Shown one piece after another: positions 35,092-56,148 of a stretch of DNA of 64,000 nt. The stretch is from the NCBI GenBank assembly GCA_951406725.2, contig OX597820.1, positions 29,946,001-30,010,000 of the forward strand, written 5' to 3'. Position numbers and translations under genes: made by a program. Position 1 is the first letter of the stretch. Each line of letters starts with the position of its first letter. Source of the DNA: Octopus vulgaris. Its lineage: Eukaryota. The notes under the pieces were generated by a model. That model was not told the origin of the DNA and did not search any database. It was given only the letters and a program-made list of their open reading frames with translations.

Positions 35092-35535
35092 TGCAGGAAT
35101 GGCTGTGTGGTAAGTAGCTTGCTTCCCAACGACATAATTGCGGGTTCAGTCCTACAACGAGGCAACTTGGGCAAGTGTCTTCTACTATAGCTTCGGTACG
35201 ACCAAAACCTTGTGATTGGATTTGGTAGACGGAAACTGAAAGAAGACCGTCGTATATATATGTGTGTGTGTATGTGTGTGTGTGTGTGTGTGTCTGTGTG
35301 TCTGTGTGTCTGTGTGTCTGTGTGTTTCTGTGTCTGTGTCTGTGTTTGCACCCTCTAAATCGCTTGACAACAGATGTTGGTGTGTTTACGTCCCCGTAAC
35401 TTAGCAAAAGAAACCGATAGAATAAGTACAAAGAATAAGTCCTGGGGTCGATTTGTTCGACTAAAGGCGGTGCTCCAGCATGGCCGCAGTCAAATTTCTG
35501 AAACAAATTTTTTAAAATAATGAAAGAATAAAAGA
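35092..35535 (+). mobile_element. SINE family A
   Basis: Homology to the family consensus. Confidence 0.88.
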
Positions 35536-35649: not shown

Positions 35650-35684
35650 TATGACGTTTCGAGCGGAGCTCTTCGTCGGAAACA
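35650..35684 (-). ncRNA. Degenerate type I hammerhead, same family as 40070-40104
   Basis: ttt CCGACGA a gagc-tcc-gctc GAAA cg TC ata (U4 changed to C). Confidence 0.5.
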
Positions 35685-35856
35685 TAGGAGAAAGAAAGAT
35701 CCCGAGACGGGAGGACAGAGGAAAAAAAAATTGCAGGTCGTCTTCACGAGGTCACATACTGAAAAGACGGAAGTAGTAAAAAAGGAGGAAAATGTTTTTA
35801 AAAACAGGAGAGCTGAATCAAAGAGGGAATGGTAAAAAAGGTGTGACAGTAACGGT

Positions 35857-35919
<63 letters not shown>

Positions 35920-35925
35920 TAACGG

Positions 35926-35974
<49 letters not shown>

Positions 35975-36061
35975 CCGTTACTGTCTCCAAAAAAAGATTT
36001 TTCGTTTCATGTTCGTCTCTGTTCCGTTGCATTCTTTCCTTCTGTGGCTGGCTAATTCAGA

Positions 36062-36129
36062 GCGGATCTCAGAATTAAACAACCGAAATCTGCGATGAGG
36101 GATCAGTTTCTGACTGAAGAATGAAGGCT
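36062..36129 (+). ncRNA. Rearranged (non-circularly permuted) hammerhead candidate, variant 2
   Basis: gcggAT C tcagaa ttaaac aacc GAAA tctgc ... ttctga CTGAAGA atgaa ggct. Confidence 0.7.
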
Positions 36130-36197
36130 TTGAATGACCCGTTTGTCTTTTTGTTCGTCCCTTCGTGTATTTCATGTTATTTATTTATGTAAAGGTT

Positions 36198-36237
<40 letters not shown>

Positions 36238-37686: not shown

Positions 37687-38055
37687 GGTGCAGGAGTGGT
37701 TGTGTGATAAGAAACTTGCTTCCCAACCACATGGTTCCGGGTTCAGGTCGACTGCGTGGCACCTTGGGCAATTGTCTTCTACTATAGCCTCGCGCCGACC
37801 AAAGCCGTGTGAGTGGATTTGGTAAACAGAAACTGAAAGAAGCCCGTCGTGTGTGTGTGTATTTGTGTGTCTGTGTTTGTCCCCCCACCATCGCTTGACA
37901 ACAGATGTGGGTGTGTTGACGTTCTCGTAACTTAGCGGTTCGTCAAAAAAACCGATAGAATAAGTACCAGGCTGAAAAAATAAGTACTAAAAATTCAAGG
38001 TGGTGCCCCAGCATGGCCGCAGTGTAATTACTGAAACATATAAAAGACAAAAGAC
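37687..38055 (+). mobile_element. SINE family A
   Basis: Homology to the family consensus. Confidence 0.88.
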
Positions 38056-38222: not shown

Positions 38223-38442
38223 TGTATGTGTGTGCGTGGGTATATATATATATATATAATGATGTGTGTGAGTGAGTGCGTGCGTGCGTTGGCGTGTACA
38301 AGCATGTGCATGGGTGTGTATGTATGTATGTATGTATGTATATATATATATGCATTCGATCCTTCTTCCAGGAAATCTACGCTTCCAGCTTAGTTTTTCT
38401 AATGCTCGTTGCTTAGTTTTTCTTGGAGGGCTGGCCGTGATC

Positions 38443-38510
38443 TGGTAATCTCAAGATTAATCAGCCGAAATTACTACGATGATCCGGTTCTTGACTGAAG
38501 ACTGAGGGTT
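38443..38510 (+). ncRNA. Rearranged (non-circularly permuted) hammerhead candidate, variant 1
   Basis: tggtaAT C tcaaga ttaatc agcc GAAA ttacta ... tcttga CTGAAGA ctgag ggtt. Confidence 0.75.
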
Positions 38511-38899
38511 TCGAATGTCCTGTCCGTGTTTATTGTATCGTCTTCTAAGAGTTATACGTTCTTGTCCATGTTGTATTTTTCTTCATACCTTAACATATAT
38601 TCCAGGCGCCCCGTACCCCCTTAACATTAATGTGAGCACATATTCTTAATAATTGGTACGACTCTCTGTTTGTCTCTCTCTCTCTCTCATTTTTACTTGA
38701 TCTGTCCCCCTCTCTCTCTTTTCTCTCTACTCATCCTCTTTTTCTCTTCTCTTTCCTCTGATTCTTTGGTCTAGTCTTCCACTACCCTCCTATTTCTTTG
38801 TCTCGCTCTGCACTCACAGGTCATTCTTCGACACCCATCCCTTCTCCTCTCTGATTCCTTCTTTCTCTCTCTTCTCTCTCTTTGTTGCGTTTGTCCCTC

Positions 38900-38940
<41 letters not shown>

Positions 38941-39315
38941 TCCTTTGCTTCTCTTTCTTTTCTTTTCCCTCTTCTCTGTCACGTGACTGTTGGCCGAAAT
39001 CTGCCTTTCAGCTCCTGACCCTCGTCGTGTTAACATCGTTGTTTTTCGTCCGCCGCTATAAAGGCTTCTTCCAATGCGCCAGAGAAAAAATTTGTTTGCT
39101 TGTTATCAGTCGTAAGACACTTGTTGTTTTCACCGTTAATGCTTCTGTATTTCATGTTTCTGTATTCCATTATTGTTTTTTGTTTTTTTTATATCTGTCC
39201 CTTTTGCTGTCCTGGTGTTCGTATGCATTCGATCCTTCTTCCAGGAAATCTACGCTTCCAGCTTAGTTTTTCTAATGCTCGTTGCTTAGTTTTTCTTGGA
39301 GGGCTGGCCGTGATC

Positions 39316-39383
39316 TGGTAATCTCAAGATTAATCAGCCGAAATTACTACGATGATCCGGTTCTTGACTGAAGACTGAGGGTT
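39316..39383 (+). ncRNA. Rearranged hammerhead candidate, identical copy in the second direct repeat
   Basis: Identical to 38443-38510. Confidence 0.75.
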
Positions 39384-39462
39384 TCGAATGTCCTGTCCGT
39401 GTTTATTGTATCGTCTTCTAAGAGTTATACGTTCTTGTCCATGTTGTATTTTTCTACATACC

Positions 39463-39529
<67 letters not shown>

Positions 39530-40069: not shown

Positions 40070-40104
40070 GTTTCTGACGAAGAGCTCCGCTCGAAGCGTT
40101 AAAT
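40070..40104 (+). ncRNA. Minimal type I hammerhead (A15.1 changed to G) in a microsatellite-flanked PLE 3' fragment at about 39528-40200
   Basis: gttt CTGACGA a gagc-tcc-gctc GAAG cg TT aaat. Confidence 0.55.
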
Positions 40105-55826: not shown

Positions 55827-56081
55827 GCCAACACCTCTTATGTCCATCTCCTATGTTCCTGCCTTTAGGCTTTCACTTCATATACGCCAGCTTAATTTGA
55901 ATCGTTCTCAGTCGAAAGACACCTGTTGTTATATTCTTGTTGTTTGTATTTGTAATTGTGTAGCGTGTTCTCCGTTCTTTTCTTTTATTTTTTGTCTTTG
56001 CTGCCGCACACATTCGCTAGCTTTCTTACAAAAAGGTTTAATGCTCTTAGCTTAGACTTTTGGGGGGGGCAACCAAATCGA

Positions 56082-56148
56082 ACTGTCCCAAGTGTAACTG
56101 CCCGAAACTATAAGGACTTCTAGTATACTAGACTGAGGAAAGAAGGCC
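56082..56148 (+). ncRNA. Diverged relative of the rearranged hammerhead
   Basis: actGT C ccaagtgta actgccc GAAA ctat ... tatactaga CTGAGGA aagaa ggcc. The flanks are homologous to those at 38350-38530 and 36120-36145. Confidence 0.5.

Follow-up and report, generated by a model that had tools for sequence, protein, structure and literature searches.

The motif at positions 36,062 to 36,129 of the window (our term for the whole 64,000-nucleotide stretch of Octopus vulgaris DNA) is best explained as part of a decayed copy of a non-coding repeat that was inserted at (TA)n and encodes a split, pseudoknotted hammerhead. This hammerhead likely cleaves after C36068 and would process the RNA of a Penelope-like element (PLE). 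We put the probability of this reading at roughly three in four. The predicted fold itself, a pseudoknotted hammerhead with the order stem II arm, cleavage site, GAAA, and CUGANGA, can be assigned with high confidence. In full, the 5' to 3' order comprises an arm of stem II, an arm of the stem I–II interaction helix, a stem III arm, NUH, a stem I arm, a linker of 1–5 nt, the second stem II arm, GAAA, the second stem III arm, the second interaction arm, the second stem I arm, and CUGANGA (Table 1).

Table 1. Coordinates of the split hammerhead, the repeat that carries it, and its relatives in the window
Feature	Position	Strand	Remark
Family B copy, 5'-truncated, non-coding (unit ~700 nt)	35972..36200	+	continues into (TA)n at its 3' end
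(TA)n target tract at fixed 3' end	36201..36236	.	upstream tract 35860-35973
Two inverted short copies of the truncated 5' end of the B element	35845-35859, 35917-35929	-	inside upstream TA tract
Closing helix IV, extension	36030-34 with 36132-36	+	
Closing helix IV, 5' arm	36038..36042	+	pairs with 36123-36127; tentative
Stem II, 5' arm, detached from CUGANGA	36046..36050	+	G10.1 = 36046; letters GGCTG
Stem I–II interaction helix, 5' arm	36051..36058	+	pairs with 36100-07
Block S	36062..36074	+	stem III arm 36062-67; C17 = 36068; stem I arm 36069-74
Predicted cut	3' of C36068	+	from core position and junction peak
Block G	36080..36093	+	stem II 3' arm 36080-84; GAA 36085-87; stem III arm 36088-93
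Interaction-helix 3' arm, stem I arm, CUGAAGA core	36100..36120	+	36100-07, 36108-13, and 36114-20
Closing helix IV, 3' arm	36123..36127	+	overlaps the stem II arm first proposed (36126-29)
Letters of the window copy	A36054, A36082		A36054 private to this copy (family G); A36082 rare (family G)
Family A insertion (1.3 units of 873 nt in tandem)	38349..39473	+	two copies of the split fold
Family A folds	38429-38501; 39302-39374	+	cut after C38450 and C39323; nearly identical
Family C decayed copy, same fold	56067..56139	+	stem II arm 56067-71; core 56133-39

Hammerhead core and stems I and III

The original prediction described a rearranged hammerhead on the plus strand, and the core letters are indeed located there: ATC at 36066–36068, CCGAAA at 36083–36088, and CTGAAGA at 36114–36120. 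The core motifs are absent from the other strand, and the fragment that contains them is flanked by (TA)n on both sides, as had been described. The motif contains the hammerhead core letters CUGANGA, GAAA, and NUH, which were also search criteria. Likewise, U16.1, GAAA, CUGA, and GA are invariant in 21 of 21 aligned rows, where the search also required them. The motif is not a nested three-way junction in one of the circularly permuted orders (types I, II, and III); its order is S-G-C. Applied to the window and to 400 kb of sampled genome, a strict descriptor afforded five matches, namely three in the window, one that looks real, and one that is probably due to chance, and none in reversed sequence. 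Rfam returned no match at the gathering score and no hammerhead family at E ≤ 1, but microsatellite-driven miRNA matches only. Minimum free energies, which are uninformative for a pseudoknot, gave z-scores of −1.5 to +1.2 that are not significant. An alternative pairing over GAAA, which would be an inactive fold, could connect 36085–36093 with 36123–36131, and in family A 38466–38472 with 38506–38512 (seven pairs, two of them G-U).

Stems I and III had been reported to change by compensated pairs relative to a homolog near 38,450. For stem I this is correct: comparison of 36069–74/36108–13 with 38451–56/38489–94 identifies two doubly changed pairs. Stem III does pair completely (36062–67/36088–93), but the number of substitutions attributed to it was too high, because an inserted G-C pair, with a shift of register, accounts for some of the difference. 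In the MAFFT alignment, family B contains one extra column per arm relative to family A2. The G-U pair that closes stem III of the A copy contains a minority letter (41 occurrences with A versus 4 with G, in a count that takes in overlapping loci).

The position of stem II

Stem II was originally assigned to a GGCU that follows the core after an insert of five nucleotides. This is a misassignment: the arm at 36080–84 pairs with GGCTG at 36046–50, upstream of the segment then considered. Since the stem II arm lies at this upstream position, the five-nucleotide insert is not supported either.

Cores of the order S-G-C were searched by stems I and III alone; stem II was not a criterion. The window and the loci gathered afforded 170 matches, of which 103 are unique; five purposely fetched families dominate this set, and two of the unique matches are probably due to chance. 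A 5/5 Watson–Crick partner for the letters before GAAA occurs within 40 nt upstream in 79 of these 103 matches and within 40 nt downstream in none. The better partner lies upstream in 94 and downstream in none. Four or more Watson–Crick pairs starting 0–2 nt after A9 were found in 0 of the 103.

Family statistics were derived from 13 representatives (12 picked from 35 clusters, plus family G). Helices were counted from core anchors, because MAFFT on all 21 rows misaligns the deep clades. The upstream stem II arm begins 20–27 nt before the cut in these families. Stems I, II, and III abut the core and covary, with 75/78, 64/65, and 63/65 cells paired, respectively, versus 28/52 for the stem II arm first proposed. 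G10.1 pairs with C11.1 in 12 of the 13 families, and two to four pair types occur at positions 2–5 of stem II. Because the upstream arm was chosen as the best match, arms were swapped between families under the same picking rule. None of 20,000 cross-family permutations reached the own-family pairing of stem I, stem III, the upstream stem II, or the interaction helix. For stems I and III, which had been predicted correctly and pair far better within than across families, this result is partly by construction, because both helices were search criteria. The downstream arm first proposed was matched by 1,879 of 20,000 permutations, and any downstream arm by 16,422. With seven deep clades represented by one sequence each, the counts are 2/5,040 for stem I, 1/5,040 each for stem III, the upstream stem II, and the interaction helix, 3,292/5,040 for the arm first proposed, and 3,463/5,040 for any downstream arm.

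Duplex energies favor the upstream arm in nine of ten copies (the window copy gives a tie), and in a typical B copy the upstream stem II and the closing helix are already present in the nested centroid fold. Against the upstream arm, the two options come close on a sequence-only alignment of 18 rows from families A–D, with 74% paired cells for the upstream arm (nine C rows are one column out of register there) versus 69% for the downstream arm. Three of the five upstream pairs are doubly changed in this alignment, compared to one downstream pair (seven rows). Across 13 diverged families, the arm at the 5' end is the partner in stem II.

This outcome makes it highly improbable that the motif is a type-SGC hammerhead with stem II at the GGCU five nucleotides after CUGAAGA. 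A pairing of 4 bp with this GGCU can be drawn in B, A, and A2, one pair covaries within the A–D clade, and GAAGGCY is kept after the core in A–D. These points are outweighed by the permutation results, in which the downstream arm behaves like a cross-family shuffle, and by the absence of this pairing from D, N, E, F, and G; moreover, the bases of the downstream GGCU also fit the closing helix. A variant of the split fold, in which GGCU/GGCC downstream of the core competes in A–D and switches off or tunes a ribozyme that leaves the RNA partly cut, is unlikely as well. Energies of the competing duplex range from −2.4 to −4.8 kcal/mol (families B, A, A2, and C), and a partly inhibited ribozyme would be consistent with the covarying pair in the A–D alignment and with B insertions that mostly stem from uncut or re-ligated RNA. 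However, the competing partner is absent in the other clades, and among related sequences a single covarying pair can arise through shared descent.

The split fold with its upstream stem II contains two helices that the original prediction lacked, 36051–58/36100–07 and 36038–42/36123–27. The latter (helix IV) starts from a pyrimidine-rich segment before G10.1 that often pairs with a purine-rich segment after A9 over 4–8 pairs. Own-family pairing of helix IV averages 4.96 versus 4.29 across families (permutation p 0.011), a weak signal among related families, and the helix is not evident in some Naiad consensuses.

A mismatch in stem II had also been noted. As a family trait it disappears, since 27 of 29 family copies pair; it reflects decay of the window copy. 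Among 30 family B loci (29 parsed), G occupies both 36054 and 36082 in 27, G and A occur in one, and A occupies both positions in the window's locus only. In sequencing run X16, G accounts for more than 99% of the summed depth at both sites. The mismatch is almost private to the window copy and therefore carries no information on family B. The claim that selection acts on the RNA structure needs a corresponding restriction. Structure is indeed kept while sequence varies, but the window copy, with two destabilizing changes in ~75 nt, is not itself under selection; selection acts on the mobile family. For family C, six copies passed the filter of the within-family selection test.

Repeat families and their relation to Penelope-like elements

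The window contains four relatives of the motif: one of family B, two of family A that are 873 nt apart, and one of family C. Family B has at least 1,373 and at least 1,682 candidates in the genome by two counts, family A 1,572, family C 1,490, and family E2 2,410, all of them lower bounds, with 40 scored in each count. Among the matches listed, the best B and A copies are 98–100% identical to the query, and families A, B, and E are young (95–99% identical).

Families A, B, C, and E consist of non-coding units of ~700–870 nt that are 5'-truncated at many points and frequently form partial tandems (855–873 nt in A; for B, in locus L028 and in an array on contig C27). The longest ATG frames are 71 aa in A and 160 aa, of low complexity, in B. 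The 3' end is nearly fixed: (TA)n begins 133 nt past the cut in 13 of 30 matches for B and 143 nt past it in 20 of 49 matches for A; 21 of the 49 A matches have no tract within 420 nt, which is expected of internal tandem units. With a (TA)n target, a fixed 3' end, variable 5' truncation, and partial tandems, the anatomy of these elements is Penelope-like. Inverted 5' pieces are found in Penelope-like insertions (Craig 2021, PMC8557442) and likewise at the window B copy (35845..35929). Naiad PLEs have the (TA)n target, the partial tandems, and the inverted 5' pieces in common with families A, B, C, and E (PMC8557442). These insertion traits are not diagnostic of Naiad, because other PLE clades share them.

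Several further observations concern these repeats. The C27 array (C27:25601651-25613784, L265–L272) contains at least eight family B units with a period of ~1.33 kb, padded by microsatellite and repeated 3' ends. Deeply diverged split-fold families (E1–E4, F, and G) occur at L015, L066, L097, L208, L218, L223, and L226–L255; their NUH is GUU, GUC, GUA, AUC, or AUA, their interaction helices reach 10 bp, and E3 and E4 contain an A-C mismatch at position 3 of stem I. Contigs from sequencing runs that are presumably RNA cover A and B. An 889-nt contig of run X9 (window 38362–39256) corresponds to about one A unit plus 30 nt, with the shape of a cyclic unitig, and fits a circle or a tandem equally. 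SINE-like repeats of very high copy number occupy 37700–38040 and 35260–35510; their depth (37634–37875) is far above that of A and B in all four runs.

Naiads insert at (TA)n and are described as devoid of canonical hammerheads, with "half cores" 35–50 nt apart in eight cases including Naiad_Ovul (HHR_half_core; Craig et al. 2021, PMC8557442). The available portion of that study proposes no fold for the half cores. Inspection of File S5 by eye, covering part of its 54 consensuses and missing line-broken motifs (further cores are present), located the split fold at nine places. These include the ends of Naiad_Amil, Aacu, Anas, Obim, and Ovul, with names assigned by file order. Intact type CSG was found at six places, including Naiad-1, -2, and -3_Nbra. 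As far as this inspection goes, published Naiads of cnidarians and octopus contain the split form and those of nematodes contain intact CSG. The nematode 3' ends, where named, combine intact CSG with a long I–II interaction helix. The accessible text of Eckert 2023 (PMC10085705) lists only two natural CSG sequences, both from soil.

A motif taken from the 3' end of the published octopus Naiad matches the genome exactly at 97 places. Upstream of family N we found RT remnants with GIPMG and YIDD motifs, and with DKA in L154; their match to Pfam RVT_1 (E 2e-4) is below the cut-off. An RT fragment is followed by the ribozyme on one strand in L132/L225, L223, L147, and L151, and the ribozyme core is kept in 9 of the 25 loci walked upstream from family N. 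The Naiad ORF (N-terminal GIY-YIG plus RT with DKA) is absent from the A and B units. Naiad PLEs encode RT and endonuclease (PMC8557442), whereas families A, B, C, and E encode neither and are younger than the local Naiads, which are old remnants.

The mobilizing retroelement is likely Penelope-like and derived from Naiad. Two findings count against this reading: the youth of A, B, and E compared to the old Naiad remnants, and the presence of intact C-terminal-endonuclease PLEs without the fold. The latter encode 753–785 aa with an RT followed by a GIY-YIG match below the Pfam cut-off (one tested). As carriers these young elements were rejected, as the fold occurs in none of the ten 3' UTRs shown. 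A split-fold copy near a young PLE in L213 is a separate insertion after a TA tract, and an A3-type copy near 1 of 30 loci of a related PLE family is probably independent. The PLE RT next to B in L029 was also discarded as a carrier; it is a chance target, with B sitting within the RT ORF. Young PLEs (L206–L220, L286–L315) number at least 13,842 candidates, contain an upstream ORF of ~340–380 aa without a Pfam match, and near their 3' end contain only a deviant type-I-like core.

Insertion junctions, mechanism, and known hammerheads

A cut after C17 would leave an RNA that begins at +1, and insertions are therefore expected to start at or just after this position. Thirty B loci were chosen by sequence 3' of the cut, and seven of eight tandem-array members were dropped. 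The 5' starts of the remaining 23 insertions fall at +1 (3), within 11 nt upstream (2), or further upstream (18). Since most of them (20 of 23) extend upstream through the predicted cut site, much of the template must have been uncut or re-ligated. A second search looked for TA tracts no more than 30 nt away from an anchor. For B, 27 places (two of them probably a local duplicate) were obtained from the first 100 of 257 rows: 5 at +1, 19 at +3 to +12, and 3 upstream. On the minus strand of the genome, at least 33 B junctions fall at +1 to +12 (36, less at most 3 upstream), compared to 8 at −2 to −32 and 10 at +14 to +44. The density of ~2.8 per nt just 3' of the predicted cut is about nine-fold above that of the flanks (0.26 and 0.32), with binomial p ~4e-12 and ~4e-11 under uniform junctions; the anchors differ between the windows compared. 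For family A, the first 100 of 1,454 rows gave 19 of 19 places at +1 to +11, two of them at +1. The upstream pattern for A picked up the A2/A3 subfamilies as well; these have many junctions upstream of the cut (118 matches on the minus strand, in a count that covers the upstream side only).

The junction peak suggests a footprint of cleavage in vivo, and the motif is probably capable of cleaving its own RNA after C17, as predicted from its core. Microhomology to TA in the AT-rich segment +5 to +11 may inflate the peak. We consider it quite improbable that the RNA is a conserved but non-catalytic recognition fold for RT or another protein and that the peak arises from TA microhomology or RT stalling. 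This explanation would fit the AT-rich composition at +5 to +11 and the many B insertions that pass the site. It does not account for the absence of upstream A junctions (0 of 19) despite the AT-rich sequence there, for the 5 of 27 B junctions exactly at +1, or for the invariant core letters, with the caveat that the search required them.

A catalytic split fold could operate as follows. A tandem or read-through transcript would fold, with A9 and G10.1 held by stacking in place of a covalent link and with help from the closing helix in many families, and would be cut 3' of H17 into monomers. In a paper on viroid hammerheads, an extra base at the A9–G10.1 junction is reportedly tolerated. Hammerhead chemistry employs G12 as base and the 2'-OH of G8 as acid (PMC11300833). 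After the cut, the upstream product would keep the stem II, interaction-helix, and stem III arms, and the downstream product the rest. Since three helices (stem II, stem III, and the interaction helix) connect the two cut ends, the monomer could circularize; in B its ends would be clamped by ~19 base pairs and could re-ligate. A PLE RT acting in trans would begin copying at a fixed point 133–143 nt downstream of the cut. Copying of linear cut RNA would produce insertions that start at or just after the cut, and copying of circular or uncut RNA would produce longer and tandem insertions, with more than one unit on circles. Circular template copying has been proposed for PLEs (Cervera and de la Peña 2014, PMC4209133).

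Eckert et al. 2023 (PMC10085705) describe the hammerhead as blocks C, G, and S, which are assumed to be indivisible and allow six permutations. The non-circular SGC and CSG types came to light in metatranscriptomes, next to hairpin ribozymes, and through a pattern search; both topologies cleave in vitro, and SGC requires the I–II helix. The split order is this non-circular SGC/CSG topology opened between A9 and G10.1, outside the six permutations. Both forms share the cyclic order S-G-C, the pseudoknotted stems I–III, the canonical core, and a helix that joins the far ends of stems I and II. The linker from I to II is typically 3 nt in type SGC and 1–5 nt in the split form. The two forms differ in block C, which is whole in type SGC; in the split form the stem II arm and CUGANGA lie at opposite ends (5' and 3', respectively). 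They also differ in origin (environmental sequences versus mobile repeats of an animal genome). By the definition of type SGC, the octopus motif thus shows the order S, G, C, the I–II helix, and a short linker, but no uninterrupted block C. The A9–G10.1 junction accepts a bulged base in minimal PLE hammerheads (PMC4209133).

The PK hammerhead (Zhan et al. 2024, PMC11300833) likewise combines a hammerhead core with a pseudoknotted architecture and an additional helix. In that ribozyme helix II is replaced by a pseudoknot to a stem-loop with pistol-like connectivity, in contrast to the split form, which has a full stem II of 5–6 bp with an arm from the 5' end. Within the literature covered, from which subscription titles were largely absent, we found no hammerhead with a split block, nor a natural one in which the A9–G10.1 link is open. 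The available parts of sources including PMC13725137, PMC10162972, and PMC12192606 contain no permuted or non-circular hammerhead in animal mobile elements. A 2026 paper, as far as its text was accessible, mentions hammerhead variants "containing additional helices".

We lean slightly toward a broader model in which non-circular hammerheads are the normal ribozyme of Naiads and of their non-autonomous derivatives in several animal phyla: intact CSG in nematodes, and a seventh permutation, with the catalytic strand open at A9/G10.1, in cnidarians, cephalopods, and others. These ribozymes would cleave in vivo, leave their footprint on insertion junctions, and circularize RNA. If so, there is a natural hammerhead connectivity that the six published permutations rule out by their premise of indivisible blocks, and non-circular permutations, so far represented by a few hundred sequences from the environment, would be present in thousands of copies in a single animal genome. 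The model would also explain the half cores and the reported lack of canonical hammerheads in Naiads, a lack from which hammerheads were suggested to be dispensable passengers of PLEs (PMC8557442). The junction peak would serve as a genomic readout of cleavage applicable to any PLE family. Because standard descriptors and Rfam miss the fold, counts of invertebrate ribozymes and retrozymes are probably too low.

Non-LTR retrozymes (bioRxiv 10.64898/2026.07.22.740005) are, like the present families, non-coding tandems related to PLEs with one hammerhead per unit. Their size range of 51–972 nt, with a proposed circular template, includes the present units. They contain type I hammerheads, whereas the present families contain the split non-circular form, and descriptors for type I do not detect it. 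By analogy, the motif would work like a type-SGC/CSG hammerhead placed in a retrozyme or PLE pseudo-LTR, as a member of neither type SGC nor the type I retrozymes. The window also contains two minimal PLE-type type-I hammerheads at 40074–40104 (+) and 35651–35684 (−), each with a core change. They combine a CUGACGA core with a bulged A, a 4-bp stem II, and a palindromic stem III, and belong to a separate high-copy family that also occurs at L004 and L313 and is missed by Rfam.
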